Shown here: positions 1 through 25,161 of the stretch, one piece after another | How the letters are laid out: every line of letters starts with the position of its first letter | Position numbering within the stretch: the stretch's first letter is position 1 | Virus record (IMG/VR): IMGVR_UViG_2851938318_000004 | From: a virus | Taxonomy: Duplodnaviria; Heunggongvirae; Uroviricota; Caudoviricetes | DNA: 25,161 bases | Direction: 5' to 3' (one strand) | Notes under the pieces: generated by a model | Database searches by the model: none | What the model was told of the DNA's origin: nothing | What the model saw: the letters and a program-made list of their open reading frames with translations, nothing else | Translations under genes and position numbers: made by a program

Positions 1-714
1 CTAACTGGATCGCTGTACGTAATCGCGGTGACCATTCCTTGATTTGTTTGGTGCCGGTTTTGTTTTGCTCAATGTCCCTTTATCCATAATATCCTGCCAT
101 TTCAACTCAAGCACATCACCGAGTCTTGCCGCACAGAGATAGGAAATCTCCATTGCAATGCGTAACTGTGGAATTGCTTCCGCATATATCGCCGCATACT
201 GTTCATCGGTGATGTAAACAGTGCGGGCTTTAAGAGAGAATTTTCTGACTCCTTTGCATGGGTTATTCTTCACATACCCACGCTCATATCCCCACCCGTA
301 TACTCGACTCAGGCTTGCCAGTTCATGATTTGCCTGGGTCTTGCTCTCAAGCCCTCGTTTATCCATGAAAATTCTTACCTGCTCAGTTTTGACATTATCA
401 GCAAGCACTTTTCCGAATACCATCAGCAACGCCTTCTGATGTTGTCGATAATCTTTTTGGGTTCGGGGGGCCAGTTCTGTAAATGCAGGGGAGTCCATAA
501 ACATGTGCCATAATTTAGCTACGGTCATTATGTTGTGGAGTTTTGCTTTTTCCAGTTCATAATTTTGCCAGACTTTAGCTACGCTGGTTTTCCGCACTCT
601 TCCTAGCCCTATAGTTCTTGTACTTCCTTCTGGTTTCCACACGTAACTGTAACCATTCGATCTAACCCGCGGTGGCAGTACATTATCTTTTTTATTTTTT
701 CTTGGTCTTCCCAT
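1..714 (-). CDS. Lambda-family tyrosine integrase, N-terminal 237 aa (arm-binding and core-binding domains, start of catalytic domain); frame ends at a stop at nt 1-3 before the catalytic His/Tyr region, so probably frameshifted or truncated
   Basis: ORF-track protein begins MGRPRKNKKDNVLPPRVRSNGYSYVW, resembling the lambda Int arm-binding N-terminus, and carries an AARLGDVLELKWQDI segment resembling the lambda Int catalytic Arg region. A different frame over nt 1-75 reads DIEQNKTGTKQIKEW, which looks like the continuation of an integrase core. Confidence 0.75.
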   Translation of the reverse strand: MGRPRKNKKDNVLPPRVRSNGYSYVWKPEGSTRTIGLGRVRKTSVAKVWQNYELEKAKLHNIMTVAKLWHMFMDSPAFTELAPRTQKDYRQHQKALLMVFGKVLADNVKTEQVRIFMDKRGLESKTQANHELASLSRVYGWGYERGYVKNNPCKGVRKFSLKARTVYITDEQYAAIYAEAIPQLRIAMEISYLCAARLGDVLELKWQDIMDKGTLSKTKPAPNKSRNGHRDYVQRSS

Positions 715-934
715 TATTCAGCGCCTCAAAATCGGGTTCAGCAGAAACCAGTTCAGATGTTTTTGGCATCGTTGTCAGTCCGTGTGGAATATCCCTGCGT
801 AGAACTATTGGTTCGTTTTTAGGACCGATTACAAATGGGATGCCGTGCAGTCTTAACTGGTGTTGCTGTTTTGTGTATCGCTCGTATTTCGTGATCTCTT
901 TAATCTCTGCTGGAGATAGAGTTAATTCGTACAT
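692..934 (-). CDS. xis: Excisionase (Xis-like), 80 aa, overlapping the int start
   Basis: Starts MYELTL and ends NGKTKKK, resembling lambda Xis (MYLTLQEW ... NGKKAKS). Position immediately upstream of and overlapping int is the classic xis-int arrangement. Confidence 0.65.
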   Translation of the reverse strand: MYELTLSPAEIKEITKYERYTKQQHQLRLHGIPFVIGPKNEPIVLRRDIPHGLTTMPKTSELVSAEPDFEALNNGKTKKK

Positions 935-1001
935 GTGGTCACGTGCCTTTACAGCATGACCGCCGCCACTGTAGCTGGTGGGCGGCGATATGGGTTGAAC
1001 A

Positions 1002-2054
1002 TTAAAAATCAGCCTGACTCGGGATCAGTTTTTGCCAGATAGCTGAAACGTATTTTGCCTGATAACGGGCGTCATCAAGTGCATTATGGCGCTCACCTTC
1101 GAATGGGATAGCAGTTCTGGCATCGAAGTCTATGGCTTTCCCCAGCTCAACGATTGTGCGTACATCGCGATCGTTGTAGTAACGCCACGGGCAGGGGATC
1201 CCCTGCCGTTCGTATGAACGGCGCAAAATCGTGTTGTCGAAGTTGGCTCCATTTCCCCAGACCTGAACAAAAAATTCACCGGAGTTTTCGTCGATAAATT
1301 CCCGCAATTGTAACAGTGCATCATCTAACGGGATTTCATCGGTCATAATGGCAGATTGCGCTTCGCGTGATTGCTTAAGCCACCATTTAATGGTGTCCCG
1401 ATCAATGACTCCGCCAGCAGTTTCCAGATCAATAGTCTTACTAAATTCCGGTCCCATATCTCCGGTTTGCGGATCGAAAAATATTGCACCTATCGAGATG
1501 ATCGGGGCATCAGGATTTTTTCCCATGGTTTCAAGGTCGATCATCAGATGAATCCCCGCTCTGCTGGTGGATGTGATTTCTTGATGACCGTTCACCTTAA
1601 TTGAGAGATCTGCCGTCTCGCCAGTTTCATTATCGCTATCGTGATGCTGATTGCCGCCAGTGTTCTCCTTGTGTGGATGTTCAGCGCCTTCCATTTCCTC
1701 CGGATCATCTTCCTGAACTTCAACCTGATACTCTTCATCGAATGTTTCCTGGTATGTTGCGTCGCCCATCACCGCGCCACAATCAGGGCAGTTGCCGCCG
1801 CCGGTCTGACCGCAGGCGGTGCAGACTTTTTCCACTTCCTGTTGCGCCACTGGTTCAGGCTGTTTCGTTTCTGGCTCGTTTTGTAACGCATTTGGGCTGT
1901 TTTGTTCCGCTTTTTGGTAGTTCCGTTCCGATTCATGCTGGTTCTGGTTTACAGAATCGCGGGTCTGGATCCCCTTAACCCATTTCGGATCATTCGGGTC
2001 GCTAATCCCTGCAACAAATTCTCCGCGAGAGGCAGCAAGCAACTTATCGGCGTC
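1002..2054 (-). pseudogene. C-terminal fragment of a prophage exonuclease split by IS629 (DEDDh DnaQ-like 3'-5' exonuclease fold)
   Basis: Motifs IDLETMG (Exo I), [10 protein letters not shown] (Exo II) and [10 protein letters not shown] (Exo III, H-x4-D), plus a CxxC...CxxC zinc-ribbon-like segment. The frame continues upstream through the GTC target duplication directly into the IS end. Confidence 0.8.
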
Positions 2055-2096
2055 TGAACCGCCCCGGGTTTCCTGGAGAGTGTTTTATCTGTGAAC

Positions 2097-2987
2097 TCAG
2101 GCTGCCAGATCATCGTTTCCGATGGAAGCATAATAAGCTTTTTCTGCTTCTGCCGGAGGAGTATGGCCCAGCCTTCCCAGCAATCGTCGATTGTTATACC
2201 AGTCCACCCACGTGAGTGTGGCCAGTTCCACTTCTGCACGGTTTTTCCAGCTCTTACGGTGTATTACCTCCGCTTTGTAAAGACCATTGATGCTCTCAGC
2301 CATCGCGTTGTCATACGAGTCGCCTGTACTCCCTGTTGATGCCAGTAATCCGGCTTCTTTTAGTCGCTCCGTATAGGCCAGTGACACATACTGAGAGCCT
2401 TTATCGCTGTGATGGATGGTGCCAGACGGACGACGGGCCCACAACGCCTGCTCCAGCGCATCCAGCACGAATGTCGTTTCCATAGACGATGAGACCCGCC
2501 ACCCCACGATGTATCCGGCAAACACATCAATGATAAACGCCACATAGACGAAGCCCTGCCATGTGCTGACGTAAGTAAAATCAGCCACCCACAGCTGGTC
2601 AGGTCGTTCTGCCACGAACTGACGGTTTACGCGGTCGCCTGCGGCAACGGCTTTCCGGCTGATGGTCGTACGGACCTTTTTACCCCGGAGAACACCGGCA
2701 AGTCCCATAACCGCCATGAGACGTGCCACTGTACATCTGGCCACCCTGATTCCTTCCCGTAACAACTGACGCCAGACTTTACGCACACCGTACACCTGAT
2801 GATTTTCATCGTATACGCGCTGTATCTCTCTCTTCAGCCAGTCGTCGTGCTGCGCACGGGCACTGCGTTTATCCGGATGATGTCGCTGTTGCTGACAATG
2901 GTAATACGTTGACGGGGCAATATGCAGTTCGCTGCATACCGGTCCGACCCCGTACTGCTCACGCAGCTTATCCAGCAGTGGCATCAT
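2097..2987 (-). CDS. IS3-family transposase OrfB (DDE integrase-like catalytic domain), IS629-like
   Basis: 296 aa ORF; 5' end overlaps orfA in the -1 frame. Confidence 0.9.
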
Positions 2988-3310
2988 TTTTTCCAGAGGC
3001 GGTCGAACTCCGCCTTCGCAAAATAAGCGGAAGCCTGGCGAAGGATATCGTTACTGCGGCGCAGTTCACGATTTTCACGTTCCAGCTCTTTCAGACGCTG
3101 ACGTTCAGCGCTGGTGAGCCCACCATCACCGCCCCCGGTATCCCGCTCATGCTGGCGAACCCAGACACGCAGAGTCTCCGGCGTACAGCCAATCTTTGGG
3201 GCAATGGAACAAATTGCCGCCCACTGTGAGTCATATTCATCCTGACTTTCCAGAACCATACGAATCGCCCGCTGACGGACTTCGGGGGAAAAACGAGTAT
3301 TTTTAGTCAT
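2984..3310 (-). CDS. IS3-family transposase OrfA (HTH DNA-binding), IS629-like
   Basis: 108 aa, [26 protein letters not shown]... with C-terminal leucine-zipper-like [21 protein letters not shown]. Confidence 0.9.
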
Positions 3311-3364
3311 CCTGTTTACCTCTTTCTCAGGGAGTTTAGTCTCCAGGATTTCCGGGGCGGTTCA

Positions 3365-4786
3365 GTCAGGCTGGCTGATATTGGCTGCCTGCATAATTTT
3401 GTTTACTTCGTCAGCGGTAACTTTTACCGGCCCTGGTTGTGCGGTCGTGTCAGATGCACCAGTATTTTGTTGTGAACCTGAGTATGTACCGTTTTTGCGG
3501 GCGAAATATTCTTCTTTCGTGATTTCAGTAGCCCCGGCAGCCAGTGCCTTATCCAGACCAGAAAGTTTGTTTGCGCGACCGTATTTTTCGCCATCCTTGT
3601 CGGTGAAGAGGAAGTAGAACGGCCCCTCACGCTCTACAGATGGTTCGACTTCCACTTTGCATTCGGTTTTTTCGTTGTCCGGAATTGCCGTTTCCACTGC
3701 ATCAGTTTCTGGTACTGGCGACGAGAGAGTATCAGTTGCGCTCTGATTTCTTCCTTCATCTTCAAACACGCCCTTTGTAGTCAGGTATTCAGTAATGTAT
3801 TTGTTCAGTGCCACAGGGTCTTTGTGAATGTCGATCGGACGTTCACGGACAAGGCCAAAAATAGTCTGGCGGTCGTAGCGAAGGGCATCAGGCTGTTTGC
3901 GCATTGATGCCGAGATACGCTTCCAGTCTTCGCGGTCGTTGTCGATAACTTCATTTTTTGCCCAGCGATGGATGCTGCCGTCAATGTTTCCGGCATCCAC
4001 ATCACCAGGCCAGAGAGCGTAGGCCAGTTCGTCATCCAGTGTTTTCCATGTCTGCTTGTATTCGCGATGAATGGCAGCAATGACCGGGCTGATTTTTCCT
4101 GTTGAATTTTCAGTGTGCTGTTGATTGGTTCTGGCGCGGGCGAGATCAACAACAGACGTGTATTTTCCGGTTTCCTTGCGTTCACCTTCGCGACGTTTTT
4201 TCCAGATGCGCATCTCTGCCTGAATTTCGGGCCATTTGGCACCAGGCTTACATTTATGCTTAACCCACCCGATGGCATGCAGCTTAAGCTCCGGATACAT
4301 GGCGTTAACATCTGGCATTTTCATCAACGCTTCAACGATATGTCCGTCGAATGTTGCCATGTCTTCCTGCAACAATTCCTGTGCGCTAATAACCATATCA
4401 ACGGTGATGTTTTCACATGTGTCGAACTTAACCATGACAGCGTTCTGTACTTCAGGGGCCAGCTTGTCAAAAGTGACGTTCATCGGATCGGATTCAGTCT
4501 CAACCGGGACAAAGGAAGCAGACTCCTCATCCCAGCGGTTTTCCTGCATATATTCAGCATCCCAGGAATCGAGGGCAGGGCGGGGTATACCGGGTTTATC
4601 CTCGCAAACAAGAAATTTATAAGCGCAGTCCTGAGCAGCCGGATAATGTTCCAGGAATTGCCAGTGAAATTTTGCTCGAGCACGGCGTTCGTCGCCAGCT
4701 TCAATGGCAGTGGCTACAGCGACTGCACCTTCTTCCTTTATTGCCTGTTCGTCCGGAATGGCGGCGCAAATAAAGACTTTACTCAT
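3365..4786 (-). pseudogene. N-terminal fragment (474 aa) of the same IS-split prophage exonuclease
   Basis: ORF terminates exactly at the TGA formed by the IS629 terminus (3362-3364). Its last codon is the GTC target duplication and is in frame with the downstream fragment. SD-like GAGG upstream of the ATG at 4786. Confidence 0.75.
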
Positions 4787-4878
4787 TTTGTTTTACCTCA
4801 TTACAGATTTAAGGGTGAACAAATCCCTGCCATTGCTGGCATATAAGAATGAAATCGGATGTTTATTACGGAACTGTT

Positions 4879-5070
4879 TTAAAGACCTGCCGGGATTTCG
4901 TTATTATCCTGGTGAATAACTTTATCGACCGGGTAACAGTTACCGGGAATTTTCTGTTCGGTTGCTGCAGTCACACACTCCTGCATTGTCCTGTGAACAC
5001 TGACTGCAATATCAACTGGCTCTCCGGAAACAAGAAAAACTGTCAGAACAAGTGCAAATGCTGTATTCAT
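4879..5070 (-). CDS. ydfD: YdfD-like small lysis protein (63 aa) with N-terminal hydrophobic signal/anchor segment
   Basis: MNTAFALVLTVFLVSGEPVD... matches K-12 Qin YdfD in length and, from memory, sequence. Start overlaps the dicB stop (ATGA); AAGGA SD upstream. Confidence 0.8.
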   Translation of the reverse strand: MNTAFALVLTVFLVSGEPVDIAVSVHRTMQECVTAATEQKIPGNCYPVDKVIHQDNNEIPAGL

Positions 5071-5255
5071 TGCCAGCATCCTTTTTGTATCGGACGTAAA
5101 CGGGCCAGCATTGAAAGAATGCATATTTTATTTAATAGCTCCCGTTCGTGTTTTCTCTTGTTAATGGCATCTTCAGTAAATACAGGGTTACTGATAGTGA
5201 CACCAATTTCAAAACAACCTTCAGACGTATTAACGTTTGGTAATAACGTTTCCAT
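5067..5255 (-). CDS. dicB: Cell division inhibitor DicB (62 aa)
   Basis: METLLPNVNTSEGCFEIGVTISNPVFTEDAINKRK... matches remembered DicB of the Qin/Kim prophage; GAGGA SD 7 nt upstream. Confidence 0.85.
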   Translation of the reverse strand: METLLPNVNTSEGCFEIGVTISNPVFTEDAINKRKHERELLNKICILSMLARLRPIQKGCWQ

Positions 5256-5424
5256 TATCGCGTCCTCAACAATGAATTTTGTGATGCGGTGCCTGGTGCC
5301 TCCAGGTGACGTTAACCAGTTAACAATTAACGCCGGATACAGAGAATCCACCCATAACACTGTTTTTGGTTTTAACTGTTCCGCGTGCGCTCAGCCGCAT
5401 TCACCGCATCACAAAATTCACTTT

Positions 5425-5482
5425 AAAAAGGGCGGCAGAGCAGTCACGGAGTAAAACTGATACCGCCAAACGTCACCAGAAA
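5425..5482 (-). ncRNA. dicF: DicF-like small regulatory RNA (ftsZ-targeting sRNA family), about 58 nt including terminator U-tract
   Basis: Minus strand reads TTTCTGGTGACGTTTGGCGGTATCAGTTTTACTCCGTGACTGCTCTGCCGCCCTTTTT, with a GGCGG...CCGCC hairpin plus T-run. Lies about 170 nt upstream of dicB on the same strand, as in K-12. Confidence 0.7.
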
Positions 5483-5786
5483 ATTGATAACAGAGGGCGT
5501 TGCAGCGGGGTTGTCACTTAAGCGTATGGTCAACCTGACAACCCGGTGTCCTCAACGGGGAAGGAATAACCCCGCCATACTTACCGCCGCGCCATTTCGC
5601 GGATTGCCACAACCGGAAGCGCACGATCGAATTAAATTTAACGACGACCTATACAGAGAGACTAACTTCGCCGGGCGCTTTCGTGTTATGCCCTGACTTT
5701 TCAGGGATATATCCTTTTCAGTAAACTGTCAGTGCCGGATTCTTATCCGTGTCCGGCGCACGCACTCTACCTCACCTGTGAATAAA

Positions 5787-6325: not shown

Positions 6326-6509
6326 GCTGACCTCATTTCCCCTTAACGCTGGGGTAGCGGAACTAAAAACCTGCTGCGCTGTTATACAAAGTGTTCCCGC
6401 CGTCATGTTCATACGCCTCGGGCTGGCTACTTACCCCCTGACCACTGCTTGGTAACTCGAAGTATTGCCCGGCGTTCTGTGGGGCGGGGTGGGTTGGTAT
6501 GTTGTTAAG

Positions 6510-6523
6510 GTAACAAGAGTTAC
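6510..6523. promoter_or_regulatory. Candidate OL operator: inverted repeat GTAAC-AAGA-GTTAC
   Basis: Same half-sites and 4-nt spacing as the two sites in the cI-cro intergenic region. Confidence 0.4.
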
Positions 6524-6568
6524 CTTTTGGGTTAATACAATGTTGCAAAAGGTACATTTGAGGGCATG

Positions 6569-6590
6569 AAAAACCCGCAATGAATGCGGG
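6569..6590 (-). terminator. Intrinsic terminator downstream of the repressor gene
   Basis: Minus strand CCCGCA-TTCAT-TGCGGG followed by TTTTT, 8 nt after the cI stop. Confidence 0.55.
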
Positions 6591-6597
6591 TTCTGAC

Positions 6598-7272
6598 TCA
6601 GTCTAAGTATTGATGTATTTGTGAAACTTTACCTTTAATGGTGTAACCACCATTCAGTTCGATGGGTTTGTAAAGCGGATTCAGTGACAACAGATAGATG
6701 TTTGGTCCGTCAATCGCAACTTTTTTTAGTGTTACGTTTGGCGTTCCTTCCAATTGGATTAAGATTATTTTTCCCACCAGTTCTCTAATGTTACTTGAGC
6801 ATGGTGTGATCAGCACGGTAGATCCGTCGGGGATGGTTGGGAGGCCGTTAGAGTTTGTCATCGCATCTCCCTCAACATGCAATAAAAAAGAGTTTTCAGC
6901 GGTTTTTGTCATGACATCAACCCAATTCTTAATACCAGGAATCTCGGTTACTGGACAACTCATATCCCAATAACCAGCCTGTTCCCACGTTAAAACGGGC
7001 AACCGGGCGATGTTGTCACTAATGTAAGGGTACTGATTCAGACGCAGATCATCGGCTTTATCGTGACCGTCCTTTCCATAAAGAATCCATTCAGGAGATT
7101 TGGAAAGCAATTTTGACAGTAGATACAAATTCTCACCGTCAGGTTTTGAAGAGCCATTTTCCCATTTTGTTACGGATACACGAGATATGCCGATTGCTTT
7201 CGCAACCTGCTGTTGGGTTAATCCAACGTCTTTTCGACGATTCCGAATACGTTCGCTGATAGTGTTTTTCAT
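6598..7272 (-). CDS. CI-type prophage repressor (N-terminal HTH, C-terminal S24 LexA-like autopeptidase domain), 224 aa from the second in-frame ATG
   Basis: HTH LTQQQVAKAIGISRVSVTKWENG; C-terminal domain with S24-like length and layout. Start at 7272 preferred over 7314 because it leaves a 91-bp operator region before cro. Confidence 0.85.
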   Translation of the reverse strand: MKNTISERIRNRRKDVGLTQQQVAKAIGISRVSVTKWENGSSKPDGENLYLLSKLLSKSPEWILYGKDGHDKADDLRLNQYPYISDNIARLPVLTWEQAGYWDMSCPVTEIPGIKNWVDVMTKTAENSFLLHVEGDAMTNSNGLPTIPDGSTVLITPCSSNIRELVGKIILIQLEGTPNVTLKKVAIDGPNIYLLSLNPLYKPIELNGGYTIKGKVSQIHQYLD

Positions 7273-7334
7273 GTAACCAATGTTACTACCAAGTGATGTT
7301 GCTATGGTTGACATTGTTATGTAACTATTGTTAC
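7273..7334. promoter_or_regulatory. OR-like operator/promoter region: two GTAAC-N4-GTTAC inverted repeats (7273-7286, 7321-7334) flanking a TTGACA hexamer (7308-7313)
   Basis: Inverted repeats read directly from sequence; the first abuts the cI start codon. Confidence 0.5.
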
Positions 7335-7363
7335 CCTTCTACTCGAAATAACAGGAGAGTTTT

Positions 7364-7579
7364 ATGTTCAAAGATGATGTTCTGCGCTATTTCAAAAAAA
7401 AGCGACTAGTAGCTGAGGCTCTTGGAATTTCACATGTGGCTGTTGTGCGGTGGAAAGCAGTTATTCCCAAACTTCGCGCAATGGAACTGGATGAAATTAC
7501 TAACGGTGAATTGAAATACAACCCAGAACTTTACAAGAAGCAGGATAGCACCTCAAACGAAGGAAAGAATGATTCATGA
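7364..7579 (+). CDS. Cro-like HTH regulator, 71 aa
   Basis: HTH segment KKRLVAEALGISHVAVVRWKAV; divergent from the repressor; AGGAG SD. Confidence 0.75.
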   Translation: MFKDDVLRYFKKKRLVAEALGISHVAVVRWKAVIPKLRAMELDEITNGELKYNPELYKKQDSTSNEGKNDS

Positions 7580-8001
7580 AAATCAAGCATGAACACATCC
7601 GCATGGCGATGAATGTCTGGGCGCATCCGGACGGCGAAAAAGTACCGGCTGCGAAAATTACCAAAGCGTATTTCGAGCTGGGAATGACGTTCCCGGAACT
7701 GTATGACGACAGCCATCCGGAAGCCCTAGCCCGTAATACCCAGAAAATTTTCCGCTGGGTAGAGAAAGACACCCCTGATGCAGTTGAAAAAATTCAGGCG
7801 TTGTTACCAGCGATCGAAAAGGCAATGCCACCTTTGCTGGTGGCCAGAATGCGCAGCCACAGTTCAGCTTATTTTCGGGAGCTGGTGGAGACGCGGGAGC
7901 GACTGGTGAGAGACGCTGATGATTTTGTAGCAGTGGCAATCGCCGGTTTCAATCAGATGAACCGTGGTGGCCCGGCAGGAAATGCTGTGGCAGTTCATTG
8001 A
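7576..8001 (+). CDS. ydaT: YdaT-like protein (CII functional-analogue family), 141 aa
   Basis: Begins MKIKHEHI; sits immediately after cro with an ATGA start/stop overlap, the position of cII. Confidence 0.6.
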   Translation: MKIKHEHIRMAMNVWAHPDGEKVPAAKITKAYFELGMTFPELYDDSHPEALARNTQKIFRWVEKDTPDAVEKIQALLPAIEKAMPPLLVARMRSHSSAYFRELVETRERLVRDADDFVAVAIAGFNQMNRGGPAGNAVAVH

Positions 8002-9183: not shown

Positions 9184-9606
9184 GTGGCAAAAGTTTTTAC
9201 ACAAGAAGAGCGGGAAAAAATTAAAGGGCAGGTTCTTGAACTCGTACGCCAGAGTGGGCGCGAGACGTTACGACAACTGGAAGCTAAAACTGGGGCAACA
9301 AGATATCTGATGAGCGTTCTGGCCAGAGAGCTGGTTGCCAGTGGCGATGTATACAACTCTGGTTACGGGTTATTCCCGTCTGAACAGGCGCGTAAGGACT
9401 GGCAAAATACCCGTAAAAAGCTCTCAAGGGCAAAGCTGAAGAAACCTGCAGTGGTTGATCCGGACCTTATCTGGTCGTTACCAGACGGCGAAATACGCCG
9501 CTACGACAGGCACCAGAACATAATTTGTCGTGAGAGCAGGAGGAGCGAAGTTATGCAGCGTGTGCTGGCGTTCTATCGGGGAAACTTTCAGGAGGTGATG
9601 GAGTGA
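9184..9606 (+). CDS. Hypothetical protein, 140 aa, GTG start, possible winged-helix N-terminus
   Basis: AGGAGG SD before GTG; occupies the position where a helicase loader is expected but has no Walker motifs. Confidence 0.5.
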   Translation: MAKVFTQEEREKIKGQVLELVRQSGRETLRQLEAKTGATRYLMSVLARELVASGDVYNSGYGLFPSEQARKDWQNTRKKLSRAKLKKPAVVDPDLIWSLPDGEIRRYDRHQNIICRESRRSEVMQRVLAFYRGNFQEVME

Positions 9607-9899
9607 GGGTGAGAGTTTATATTGCCGGTCCAATGACGGGATATGAAAATTTCAACCGTGAGGCATTTCACAAGGTGGAAGAGGAACTGAAACGGGAAGG
9701 GCATACCGTCTTAAACCCGGCAGTACTTCCGGACGGGCTGACACAGCCGCACTACATGGATATTTGCATGGCAATGATTCGTTGTGTGGATGCGATTTAC
9801 ATGCTGAATGGCTGGCAGCGGTCAGCGGGCGCTAAGGCAGAGCTGGCACTGGCGGAGAGACTGGGGCATGCGGTGATTTATCAGGAGGTGGCTCAATGA
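9603..9899 (+). CDS. DUF4406 / nucleoside 2-deoxyribosyltransferase-like small protein, 98 aa
   Basis: N-terminal YIAGPMTG motif typical of that fold; AGGAGG SD. Confidence 0.55.
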   Translation: MRVRVYIAGPMTGYENFNREAFHKVEEELKREGHTVLNPAVLPDGLTQPHYMDICMAMIRCVDAIYMLNGWQRSAGAKAELALAERLGHAVIYQEVAQ

Positions 9900-10357
9900 G
9901 AGAGGTTAACTATGAGGCGCTTCGTGAGGCAGCACAAAACTATCAGTCGACGCTGGCGTGGTATCAGGCTACCCCGGACAGCCCAAATGCTGAACGGGAT
10001 TGTGATGCGGCTCTTGCTGCGTTTAAGCGTCATATCCGTCATCGGGAAGCGGATATTATCGCTGGTTTGCTGGATGGACTGGAAGAAGCAAAATCACAAC
10101 TCAACGAGCAGCGTGAGTATTACGAAGGCGTTATCTCTGATGGGAGCAAGCGTATTGCTGAACTGGATGCGCGGGAAGTTCAATTACCGACTCGCTACGA
10201 CCTTCGATATGGACACCCGATAAATGCAGATGAGCGACATGTCATGATACCTAAAGAAAATGGCAGTTGGCTTTACCTGATTGACCTAGAACACGCATTA
10301 CGCGTCGCTGGCATTCGCATCAAAGGAGAGGAGCATGGAAATAAAACCAGAAGATGA
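9896..10357 (+). CDS. Hypothetical protein, 153 aa
   Basis: ATGA overlap with the upstream gene; AGGAGG SD. Confidence 0.55.
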   Translation: MREVNYEALREAAQNYQSTLAWYQATPDSPNAERDCDAALAAFKRHIRHREADIIAGLLDGLEEAKSQLNEQREYYEGVISDGSKRIAELDAREVQLPTRYDLRYGHPINADERHVMIPKENGSWLYLIDLEHALRVAGIRIKGEEHGNKTRR

Positions 10358-10691
10358 GTTAAGCAATATCGTTTTATTTCCGGTAAAAGAGGATGACCCT
10401 CGTAATCAGGTTAATTTTCTTTATGAGCCATCGGAAAGACCATATTGTCATCACGCCTCTGTCCGGGTTGACGAAAAAGAGCGTCAGGTCCGCTGTAAAA
10501 TCTGCGGTGCAGTTGTGGAGCCATTTGACTGGATGCTCTCTGTGGCGAAAAGAGAAACTAGGCTGGCAGATGATGTAAAGCTATTGCGCCAGGAGGAACA
10601 GGAAAGGCGGAAAAATATAGAAAAGTTAATTCAGATTGAGCGTAACGCGAAAGCGCGGATACGCAGGGTGACAAAATCCAGAACTGAATAA
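10335..10691 (+). CDS. Hypothetical protein with Cys/His zinc-ribbon-like motif (CHH ... CKIC), 118 aa
   Basis: AGGAGAGGAG SD; basic C-terminus. Confidence 0.55.
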   Translation: MEIKPEDELSNIVLFPVKEDDPRNQVNFLYEPSERPYCHHASVRVDEKERQVRCKICGAVVEPFDWMLSVAKRETRLADDVKLLRQEEQERRKNIEKLIQIERNAKARIRRVTKSRTE

Positions 10692-11479: not shown

Positions 11480-12349
11480 ATGACCACTATTACCAAAGAA
11501 CGTATTGAATTGTTCATTAAAAATCCGCTTGAAAACGGGCTTACCCGTGGTGAACAAATGGAACTGGCACGGATTGCGCTGGCATCGCTGGAAGCAGAGC
11601 CGGTGGCAAAGATTATAGCTCATTACCCATTAGGGGTTGACGTAGGCAAACAAAAATTTGTACAGGCCATTAGAGAGCTTCCTGACTTTGGCGGATATCT
11701 ATTTGCCGCCCCTCCAGCGCCGATAGTGCCGGAAGAAATGTATTGGCAGGATGCGCCAGTTGAAGGCAGCAGCAAAGCGGCTGCATACGCTACAGGCTGG
11801 AACGATTGCCGCGAAGCCATGTTTCAGTCCGGAAACTTTCGGGAAAATAAAGATTCGTCAACCAATAATTTTCGGAAAATCCCGGAAGCGTCAACCAGCT
11901 CTCCGGTAACTCCGGCTCTTCTGCCTGGTGGTTTCACCATTGAGGAGGCGAAGGAATTACATGAAGACCTGGCACGCAGCCACATAAGCAAGGCCTTAAG
12001 TGGCGAAAAGATGAAAAAGAAAGATCGCGATGCTGATTTGCGCTGGATTCATGGCGTTATAGTTCAGGCAGCGTGGTTTGTAAAAGCATCACTGGAGCAG
12101 AATGCACTATCGGGCAACTATCCGGTAACTCCGGATAGTTGGATAAGCTGTAGTGAGCGAATGCCGGATACCAAAACAGCCGTTCTTGTTGCCAGGGATT
12201 TTGGCAGGAAAGGTGACTGGCGAATGAAATGGGCGACTTACATCCCGGGGCATCCTGACGCTAATGATGGGTGGATAATACCTGGTGCGTCGTGGATACC
12301 ATCACACTGGATGCCTCTACCAGAACCGCCGCAGGAGGTGCGCCAATGA
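11480..12349 (+). CDS. DUF551-domain phage protein, 289 aa
   Basis: C-terminal WISCSERMPD...W...IP..W.PLPEPP pattern typical of DUF551; AAGGAG SD. Confidence 0.6.
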   Translation: MTTITKERIELFIKNPLENGLTRGEQMELARIALASLEAEPVAKIIAHYPLGVDVGKQKFVQAIRELPDFGGYLFAAPPAPIVPEEMYWQDAPVEGSSKAAAYATGWNDCREAMFQSGNFRENKDSSTNNFRKIPEASTSSPVTPALLPGGFTIEEAKELHEDLARSHISKALSGEKMKKKDRDADLRWIHGVIVQAAWFVKASLEQNALSGNYPVTPDSWISCSERMPDTKTAVLVARDFGRKGDWRMKWATYIPGHPDANDGWIIPGASWIPSHWMPLPEPPQEVRQ

Positions 12350-12423
12350 ACTGGCCTGAAGCATTTGCAATTACAGGCGTTGCTATGGCTATCGCTTTTT
12401 TAGTATATGTTATTTGTCGGTGA
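12346..12423 (+). CDS. Small hydrophobic peptide, 25 aa (MNWPEAFAITGVAMAIAFLVYVICR)
   Basis: AGGAGG SD; ATGA overlap with the upstream stop. Below the ORF-track size cutoff. Confidence 0.3.
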   Translation: MNWPEAFAITGVAMAIAFLVYVICR

Positions 12424-12464
12424 GGGTAAAAACGTTCGCCGGGATTAACACCAAAGGAGGGAAT

Positions 12465-12569
12465 ATGTCGGATGATATATCACTGGCAATGGAAGGTGCG
12501 CTGGCTGTTGTTGCTGTTGTGGGCGTTTACTGCCTGGTTGTGTTTTTGATGGATCGACTAGGGAACTGA
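12465..12569 (+). CDS. Small hydrophobic peptide, 34 aa (MSDDISLAMEGALAVVAVVGVYCLVVFLMDRLGN)
   Basis: AAAGGAGGG SD 5 nt upstream; single predicted TM helix. Below the ORF-track size cutoff. Confidence 0.35.
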   Translation: MSDDISLAMEGALAVVAVVGVYCLVVFLMDRLGN

Positions 12570-12814
12570 ATTCATTACGATATGGGAATTCCCATATCGG
12601 GTAAAAACGGTTTGCGGTAAAGCGAGAGTTAAGTAGAATTGCTGCGGGTGCTTGAGGCTGTCTGCCTCGGGCATGCCACCGTAAGGCAGACAGAGAAAAG
12701 CCCCAGTTAACATTACGCGTCCTGCAAGACGCTTAACATTAATCTGAGGCCCAATCTATGCTTCACAAACGTAGGTTAGCCTCTTACGTGCCGAAAGGCA
12801 AGGAGAAGCAGGCT

Positions 12815-12970
12815 ATGAAGCAGCAAAAGGCGATGTTAATCGCCCTGATCGTCATCTGTTTAACCGTCATAGTGACGGCACTGGTAACGAGGAAAGACCT
12901 CTGCGAGGTACGAGTCCGAACCGGCCAGACGGAGGTCGCTGTCTTCACAGCTTACGAACCTGAGGAGTAA
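12815..12970 (+). CDS. hokD: Hok/Gef-family type I toxin (51 aa), HokD/RelF-like
   Basis: MKQQKAMLIALIVICLTVIVTALVTRKDLCEVRVRTGQTEVAVFTAYEPEE; in-frame upstream extension resembles a mok-like leader; inverted repeat CTGTCTGCC ... GGCAGACAG in the 5' leader. Confidence 0.85.
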   Translation: MKQQKAMLIALIVICLTVIVTALVTRKDLCEVRVRTGQTEVAVFTAYEPEE

Positions 12971-24838: not shown

Positions 24839-25161
24839 TTTTTCCAGAGGCGGTCGAACTCCGCCTTCGCAAAATAAGCGGAAGCCTGGCGAAGGATATC
24901 GTTACTGCGGCGCAGTTCACGATTTTCACGTTCCAGCTCTTTCAGACGCTGACGTTCAGCGCTGGTGAGCCCACCATCACCGCCCCCGGTATCCCGCTCA
25001 TGCTGGCGAACCCAGACACGCAGAGTCTCCGGCGTACAGCCAATCTTTGGGGCAATGGAACAAATTGCCGCCCACTGTGAGTCATATTCATCCTGACTTT
25101 CCAGAACCATACGAATCGCCCGCTGACGGACTTCGGGGGAAAAACGAGTATTTTTAGTCAT
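24835..25161 (-). CDS. IS3-family transposase OrfA (IS629-like), copy 2; start codon is the last three bases of the window
   Basis: Protein identical to the copy 1 OrfA. Confidence 0.9.

Follow-up and report, generated by a model that had tools for sequence, protein, structure and literature searches.

Insertions of IS629/IS1203 into prophage genes have been described in EHEC of serotypes O157:H7, O26 and O111, where they are polymorphic between strains of one serotype; the target duplications of IS629, of which IS1203 is an isoform, measure 3-4 bp (PMC3271280). The interruption analyzed here resembles these cases in the 1310-bp element itself, in its prophage gene target and in its 3-bp duplication, and shows no difference in kind from them. 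The interrupted gene also has described relatives. The Qin prophage of E. coli K-12 holds ydfE, a 256-codon remnant of the same gene family (96.9% nucleotide identity over the first 767 nt), in the same dicB-ydfD-gene-(xis)-int neighbourhood and abutted by the IS3-family element IS2. RecE (exonuclease VIII) of the Rac prophage has its gene at the corresponding position of the early-left operon, upstream of xis/int, and shares with the protein studied here its central segment, Cys4 motif included, and to a weaker degree aa 262-380, but it carries a PD-(D/E)XK domain of 5'-3' polarity and its gene is directly followed by recT, a partner that is missing here. Stand-alone phage DEDDh exonucleases (Rv2179c-like proteins, 8KEL, epsilon34 gp34 and the T4-like dexA) belong to the same catalytic domain family, yet they are single-domain proteins of ~180-230 aa, whereas the protein discussed below has a 640-aa N-terminal extension.

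The DNA under analysis, referred to here as the window, is the whole 25,161-nt stretch of the virus record IMGVR_UViG_2851938318_000004. It derives from a prophage located between yccA and tRNA-Ser/hyaA in the chromosome of STEC O111:H8/H-, and this prophage is defective: its integrase is frameshifted and it lacks virion genes. The coordinates of all features are compiled in Table 1.

Table 1. Features of the interrupted exonuclease gene and of the insertion sequences in the window (positions are those of the whole stretch)
Feature	Position	Strand	Remarks
C-terminal exonuclease fragment, codons 474-823 and stop	1002..2054	minus	phrog_2082 positions 474-823
DEDDh 3'-5' exonuclease domain, aa 642-813	1035..1550	minus	PF16473 (Rv2179c-like), E = 2e-67
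Central RecE-like segment, aa 475-625	1599..2051	minus	similar to K-12 RecE aa 455-591; starts right at the insertion point
CxxC-x7-CxxC motif, Cys551/554/562/565	1779..1823	minus	'zinc-ribbon-like'; common to K-12 RecE
Target-site duplication, left copy GTC	2052..2054		
IS629/IS1203 (IS3 family), copy 1	2055..3364	minus	1310 bp, apparently intact; from terminal inverted repeats, NF033516 and PGAP name
IS orfB, DDE transposase part	2097..2987	minus	296 aa; NF033516 E = 3e-94
ALIL pseudoknot, programmed -1 frameshift signal between orfA and orfB	2913..3029	minus	Rfam RF01497
IS orfA	2984..3310	minus	108 aa; NF033516 (IS3 family transposase) E = 3e-11
Target-site duplication, right copy GTC	3365..3367		
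N-terminal exonuclease fragment, codons 1-474	3365..4786	minus	stop TGA 3362-3364 supplied by the IS end; phrog_2082 positions 1-474
Second IS629/IS1203 copy	23906..25161	minus	same orientation as copy 1; cut off by the window end

The first copy of the element displays the hallmarks of the IS3 family, combining a length of ~1310 bp with imperfect TG...CA ends, a frameshifted orfA/orfB pair and a 3-bp duplication. Its terminal inverted repeats (TGAACCGCCCCGG...) match at 13/13 of the first positions and at 22/25 over the first 25, and the IS3-type ALIL pseudoknot reaches 121.5 bits, where the gathering score is 50. PGAP labels the transposase, which is co-directional with the interrupted gene, as 'IS3-like element IS1203 family transposase, programmed frameshift' (WP_171877072.1). 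This copy differs by 1 nt from IS629 copies of O157:H7 EC4115 and AUSMDU00014361, and the EC4115 element encodes the identical transposase protein. The second copy in the window, 21.8 kb apart, has 1 mismatch to the first over 1256 nt; in strain 11128 it adjoins tccP2.

The GTC/GTC match around the first copy stops at 3 bp, without further extension. Read on the coding strand, the duplication is the codon GAC for Asp474, and intact genes have a single GAC at this site, reading ...CAGCCTGACGCCGATAAG... The ORF at 3362-4786 ends in ...ISQPD*, with the TGA of the IS end directly after Asp474 and no foreign tail, and deletion of 2055-3367 in silico, followed by translation, generates a single 2472-nt ORF of 823 aa with zero internal stops. 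The first-pass annotation, which had proposed these coordinates, the 3-bp duplication, the IS-derived stop and an in-frame fusion, is thus borne out on re-inspection. The restoration of the frame is partly trivial, since removal of an IS together with one 3-bp copy always restores it; chance decides only whether the duplication falls exactly on a codon, as it does 1 time in 3. Given that a 3-bp repeat alone has a 1/64 probability of arising by chance, the decisive evidence is provided by the empty site.

At the same chromosomal site, the O111:H8 strain 2009C-3675 has an uninterrupted coding sequence, in a prophage whose neighbours match and whose integrase bears the same frameshift; a comparison of 7473 nt with the window after excision of the element gives 0 differences. 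Strains 95NR1 and 8B also carry an intact gene at this locus, with 1 nt difference within the gene, 95JB1 is a further strain with the empty site, and a 558-nt query spanning the restored junction is recovered in one piece at 100% identity in many genomes. The orthologue in ETEC H10407 (WP_000048605.1) is likewise 823 aa long and aligns without gaps (17 aa and 40 nt differences). The intact gene, over at least 80% of its length, is present in 3532 of 5426 complete E. coli genomes, and the fused 823-aa protein is 98% identical to cluster P0001 (23,183 members). These comparisons, together with the colinearity of both halves on the 823-position profile phrog_2082, confirm the proposal that IS629 splits one gene of roughly 820 aa. 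It could be argued that the two ORFs are independent neighbouring genes with the element between them, as stand-alone DEDDh genes of ~180-260 aa are common in phages (phrog_14078, phrog_255). We give this reading practically no credence: a continuous coding sequence of ~823 aa exists in thousands of E. coli genomes and in 17 phage records, the same-locus orthologue is a single one, a check for intact relatives with the halves as separate genes found none, and no ATG opens the downstream piece, for which the ORF finder took a TTG four codons past the junction.

Among the same 5426 genomes, the occupied junction (1995-2081 and 3338-3424) was found in 38 (left) and 36 (right), using queries that join 27 nt of the IS to 60 nt of the gene and cannot be seeded by matches to the IS alone; all carriers labelled with a serotype are O111. 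An earlier count of 95 genomes was inflated by the joining of nearby pieces and was dropped. O157:H7 genomes such as EC4115 and TW14359, in which the match span is also 3785 nt, were considered as sharing the insertion and rejected, as their element lies at a different position with a GTT duplication. O111 genomes hold more than 40 IS629-matching pieces, and the same-orientation second copy in the window might suggest an assembly artefact or a chimera produced by recombination between two IS copies. Both junctions, however, recur in 36-38 independently assembled complete genomes, the element is bordered by a matching 3-bp duplication, and a search of the empty-site genomes for flank discontinuity, the sign of IS-IS recombination, found the flanks contiguous; an artefact is accordingly extremely improbable. 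Almost certainly, IS629/IS1203 transposed once, by simple insertion, into codon 474 (GAC) of the 2472-nt gene, an event already known in the sense that RefSeq annotates both pseudogene halves and the IS.

Strains of STEC O111:H8 differ in whether they carry the insertion, which is specific to part of the O111:H8/H- lineage, and because of this polymorphism the junction works as a lineage marker. An unlikely, though appreciable, alternative is that the insertion is older and reversible, the empty site of 2009C-3675 (and perhaps those of 95NR1 and 8B) having arisen by precise excision instead of being ancestral. STEC of serotype O111:H8 carry the IS-excision enhancer IEE, which promotes simple excision of IS3-family elements and restored lacZ in O121:H19 (PMC9397093). 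The split gene is free of a second lesion, and at each of the 10 sites distinguishing 95NR1 and 8B, 2009C-3675 agrees with the excised window. The absence of differences over 7.5 kb is, however, equally expected of close clonal relatives whose site was never occupied, and nine of the 10 sites are clustered in what looks like a recombination patch, carrying no tree signal. The first-pass annotation had described the event as a clean, datable inactivation. It is clean, with no other lesion in the gene, but it can be dated only phylogenetically. The gene has no more than 99.0% identity in some of the strains that bear the IS, indicating that recombination with copies in other prophages has blurred any molecular clock.

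In the intact protein (WP_086893271.1), the N-terminal and central scaffold is related to RecE, and a DEDDh domain replaces the PD-(D/E)XK domain of RecE. BLASTP similarity to RecE (E = 3e-63 over the whole 370-column alignment) stops at RecE residue 591, and PF06630, the RecE nuclease domain, has no match in the exonuclease protein. The central segment aligns with NF007259 positions 465-601 (E = 1e-69), far under the family cut-off score, which is 1269 bits where the scores obtained are 49.7 and 235.4. In relatives, the N-terminal scaffold family is joined to RecE-type domains (PF06630 in 13/43, PF12684 in 11/43). The C-terminal domain is, as had been proposed, a DEDDh 3'-5' exonuclease; D646, E648, D746, H796 and D801 follow its DxE, D and Hx4D pattern and are its putative catalytic residues. 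By sequence, the nearest solved relative of this domain is a 227-aa 'Exodeoxyribonuclease' (8KEL, E = 1.5e-6). The suggestion of a zinc-ribbon-like middle agrees with a CxxC-x7-CxxC motif at aa 551-565 that is also present in RecE, but the motif is missing from all 42 divergent relatives examined; the motif was therefore ruled out as a family-wide feature and is a local one, a putative zinc ribbon. The designation of the gene as a recombination-module nuclease is not supported, as its domain is a 3'-5' DEDDh exonuclease and not the 5'-3' PD-(D/E)XK nuclease of RecE, and the adjacent annealing-protein gene of a two-component recombination module is lacking: the annotations of this prophage, of H10407, of 95NR1 and of phage Tritos, which carries the gene, place no RecT, Bet or Erf gene in the interval from int to the repressor. 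The literature searched on PF16473, ydfE/Qin, RecE/DEDDh and 11128/tccP2 yielded no function or experimental study of the gene, nor any of the insertion.

Insertion sequences have struck this gene family repeatedly. IS629 lies at two other positions, in O157:H7 EC4115 (duplication GTT) and in AUSMDU00014361 (GAT), and these insertions are independent events; IS2 struck the family in K-12 Qin and in one other strain. The gene is truncated after 166 codons in BL21, 256 in K-12, ~360 in EC4115 and 658 in AUSMDU00014361. The parallel drawn with K-12 Qin stands insofar as a 256-codon remnant lies beside ydfD/dicB at IS2, yet the two cases are not equally clean. In Qin, both IS2 and intQ are truncated, the latter at its N-terminus, and the remainder of the exonuclease gene is deleted, so that an insertion was followed by deletion and in-silico repair is impossible, whereas at the locus studied here nothing has been lost.

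In the sequence of events that we favour, IS629/IS1203 inserted in codon 474 of an early-left-operon gene of a defective lambdoid prophage, duplicated 3 bp (GTC) and left the gene in two pieces without other lesion. The N-terminal 474 codons now stop at the TGA of the IS end, and the C-terminal 349 codons retain the whole DEDDh domain but have lost start codon and ribosome-binding site, such that full-length enzyme would no longer be made from this copy. The outcome is a real, and ordinary, gene knock-out. The N-terminal half may yield a stable product of 474 aa, since the domains predicted in it are undamaged: the AlphaFold2 model of the fragment (mean pLDDT 84) contains four confident domains, all within aa 1-435. 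Inactivation might then be incomplete, with this product, or an internally started C-terminal fragment, keeping function. The native last residue of the N-terminal product and the wholeness of the catalytic domain in the downstream piece are compatible with such retention, and read-through transcription from the co-directional transposase is conceivable. We nevertheless regard retained function as decidedly unlikely. Truncation points elsewhere vary widely, which looks like decay and not like selection for one product, and PGAP calls both halves pseudogenes ('exonuclease, missing C-terminus' and '3'-5' exoribonuclease domain-containing protein, missing N-terminus'). On the minus strand, moreover, no promoter-like site was found from the IS to the C-terminal piece; across 900-5600, a promoter and terminator scan returned sites that did not exceed the shuffled-sequence expectation.

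Loss of the gene is probably neutral, given that the prophage is already crippled and that strain 11128 has four further matching places for the gene family (5 places in NC_013364.1). A more speculative reading, which we hold to be quite improbable, is that the repeated, independent IS strikes, by IS629 at three positions and by IS2 in at least two genomes, reflect not just a large neutral target but selection for silencing a costly nuclease in lysogens, reversible by precise excision in iee-positive STEC, with 2009C-3675 as a revertant; if true, the IS would be an on/off switch for a DEDDh nuclease on a RecE scaffold. Beyond strain typing, the insertion has little importance. As a clean presence/absence marker, its junction divides STEC O111:H8/H- into carriers and non-carriers, and it could be used for a PCR in the style of IS-printing or for testing IEE-driven excision. 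The intact gene is the more interesting by-product of the analysis, joining a narrow and structurally unmatched RecE-type scaffold to what is predicted to be a 3'-5' DEDDh nuclease.

The prophage exonuclease gene is interrupted by a real, simple and fully explained insertion of an IS629/IS1203 element, already represented in public annotation. Within 541-5100, listing of open-reading frames (ORF) recovers two minus-strand exonuclease ORFs. Between them lies an element whose own two ORFs (108 and 296 aa) overlap and are likewise on the minus strand. The terminal inverted repeats of this element (TGAACCGCCCCGG...) agree throughout their first 13 positions and at 22 of the first 25, and the direct repeat claimed by the first-pass annotation is indeed present on either side, matching the 3-4 bp duplications made by IS629 (PMC3271280). 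The NCBIfam model for IS3 transposases, NF033516, is hit by the orfB product (E = 3e-94) and, in its N-terminal part, by the orfA product, and Rfam detects an ALIL frameshift pseudoknot. RefSeq names the element 'IS3-like element IS1203 family transposase, programmed frameshift' (WP_171877072.1), IS1203 being an IS629 isoform first identified in O111:H- (PMC3271280).

Features of the prophage stretch, in window coordinates (locus coordinates follow the numbering of each locus)
Feature	Coordinates	Strand	Details
Integrase gene	1-714	-	11765-12780 in locus L002
Exonuclease ORF, C-terminal	1002-2042	-	346 aa, TTG start
Target duplication GTC	2052-2054; 3365-3367		match not longer than 3 bp
IS element (copy 1)	2055-3364		1310 bp, ends fixed by script
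ALIL pseudoknot	2913-3029		121.5 bits
Exonuclease ORF, N-terminal	3362-4786	-	474 aa
ydfD-like DUF1482 gene	4879-5070	-	
dicB	5067-5255	-	
DicF sRNA	5430-5481	-	76.7 bits (Rfam)
sok antitoxin RNA	12646-12820	+	117.5 bits
hokD	about 12815-12970		
tRNA cluster	17546-17795	+	CAT anticodon, Arg-TCG, Arg-TCT
STnc100 sRNA	17872-18062	+	138 bits
Second IS629/IS1203 copy	23906-25161		runs past window end; same orientation as copy 1, 1 mismatch in 1256 nt; 9233-10446 in locus L009

On the coding strand the duplication constitutes the codon GAC (Asp474). It is followed directly by a TGA belonging to the IS end, so the upstream ORF closes as ...ISQPD* with zero foreign residues. In-silico excision of 2055-3367, proposed as a check in the first-pass annotation, yields one continuous ORF of 2472 nt (823 aa) without internal stop, and all the observations stated there proved correct. 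Frame restoration is automatic for any 3-bp duplication; that the duplication falls exactly on a codon is the sole chance event (1 in 3).

The two ORFs were read from the outset as halves of one gene of roughly 820 aa, and intact homologues bear this out. A query of 558 nt placed across the healed junction aligns in one piece, at 100% identity, to many E. coli genomes, where it falls inside a single 'exonuclease' CDS. The orthologue in ETEC H10407 (WP_000048605.1) is a 2472-nt CDS located between ydfD/dicB and xis/int that aligns without gaps to the in-silico fusion, from which it differs by 17 aa and 40 nt. The phrog_2082 profile is exactly 823 positions long; one half matches its positions 1-474 and the other its positions 474-823. 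In the protein search the 120 top-ranking homologues listed all span 793-831 aa, covering 96-100% of the query. Continuous orthologues, the colinear profile match and full-length homologues rule out two separate genes.

The sole Pfam match of the fused protein is PF16473 (Rv2179c-like 3'-5' exoribonuclease, DEDDh) at aa 642-813 (E = 2e-67), and its nearest solved relative by sequence is 8KEL, a 227-aa 'Exodeoxyribonuclease' that is probably T4 DexA. Upstream of this domain, aa 475-625 are very similar to residues 455-591 of K-12 RecE, a segment in which RecE carries CNACGQTGGDNCPDCG and the fused protein a 16-residue counterpart, and aa 262-380 are weakly similar to RecE 278-391; both the alignment and NF007259 place the end of the similarity ahead of the RecE nuclease domain. 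The N-terminal half defines a narrow family (190 representatives with E <= 1e-3 among 1.84 billion proteins), and among 43 long divergent members 13 carry PF06630 (Exonuc_VIII), 11 PF12684 (PDDEXK-like) and 6 PF16473. The scaffold is joined either to PD-(D/E)XK domains of the RecE type or to a DEDDh domain, and the protein is thus a scaffold of RecE type whose catalytic domain has been exchanged. Four domains are confidently predicted in aa 1-640 (model m203066a02ff9; alignments A1/A2), and comparison with solved structures gave no informative match. The insertion (window 2051, fused aa 475) lies within a few codons of where strong RecE similarity starts, probably by coincidence, and the same point is a boundary of mosaic sequence blocks.

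The label 'recombination-module nuclease' is the one part of the otherwise correct earlier reading that is not supported, since no gene for an annealing protein is annotated beside the exonuclease in the window prophage, H10407, 95NR1 or the 46-kb phage Tritos. Tritos presents the same order as here, cI ... DicF-dicB-ydfD-gene-xis-int, and the DicF-dicB-ydfD block, in which the sRNA lies upstream of both genes, is also that of K-12 Qin. The gene family, at a coverage of at least 80% of the query, is present in 3532 of 5426 complete E. coli genomes (~65%), and the literature searched contained no functional study of it.

The window differs from E. coli O111:H- 11128 (NC_013364.1, from about 1121285) by 1 mismatch in 16174 nt; across 1002-4786 several other O111 strains outscore 11128 (6990 versus 6985 bits), consistent with zero mismatches. 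RefSeq annotates both halves as pseudogenes ('missing N-terminus', 'missing C-terminus') flanking the IS. Queries joining 27 nt of the IS to 60 nt of the gene, searched against the 5426 complete genomes, detect 38 genomes with the left junction and 36 with the right. All carriers whose serotype is given belong to O111 (written H8, H- or NM, and H2 in one record). Searching with the healed gene retrieved uninterrupted copies in O111 strains 2009C-3675, 8B, 95NR1 and 95JB1. The surroundings, checked for the first three, correspond to the prophage and chromosomal site of the window: yccA, the DUF4224 gene, dicB and the integrase with its frameshift are all shared. This is the empty site sought in the first-pass annotation, and it lies within the same serotype. 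Relative to the excised window, 2009C-3675 differs at 0 of 7473 positions, and 95NR1 and 8B at 10 (1 in the gene, 9 clustered near cro/ydaT).

The insertion is thus polymorphic within O111:H8, and it either arose inside this lineage or was lost again by precise excision. Such excision is not far-fetched, because O111:H8 carries an IS-excision enhancer that promotes simple excision of IS3-family elements, with lacZ restored in O121:H19 (PMC9397093). Four O111 carriers (2015C-3108, UTAK-22, 08-4377 and 7-27 20A) share the IS junctions in a gene just 99.0% identical to the window, which suggests patchy post-insertion recombination with gene copies in other prophages that would disturb any clock drawn from the region.

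The same gene family has been hit repeatedly. As the first-pass annotation had noted, K-12 Qin holds an exonuclease remnant (256 codons, 96.9% identical), which abuts IS2 and an integrase, both truncated; BL21 retains 166 codons, and strain GmM062 (locus L005) carries IS2 inside the gene. IS629 occupies another position in O157:H7 EC4115 (6394-7703 of locus L006) and several other O157:H7 strains including TW14359, with duplication GTT, and a further one in AUSMDU00014361 (5502-6811 of locus L007), with duplication GAT. The EC4115 and AUSMDU00014361 insertions lie in gene copies of other prophages and are independent of the O111 one, and all three IS629 copies are oriented with the gene. At 2.5 kb, dispensable and present several times per genome, the gene simply offers a large target.

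The split copy would not be able to produce the full-length enzyme. Strain 11128 contains five places with sequence matching the gene, the split copy being one of them; loss of the gene is most likely neutral. The prophage is already a defective one. Its integrase, a frameshifted pseudogene in RefSeq, bears the same frameshift in the intact-gene strains 95NR1, 8B and 2009C-3675, so mobility had already been lost without any contribution from the IS. In strain 11128 the lysis cassette and a ylcI/ynfO-family gene precede the second IS copy, which borders on tccP2 and an espV fragment, with tRNA-Ser beyond them. No virion genes occur past the lysis genes, and since all of them are missing, the late region was likely lost through an IS-associated deletion. 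Elsewhere in the prophage, sok and the adjoining hokD make up a type I toxin-antitoxin pair. STnc100 follows a three-gene tRNA cluster, and a SASA-family esterase gene and the lysis genes lie downstream; the CAT-anticodon tRNA is assigned to Met by ARAGORN and to Ile by PGAP.
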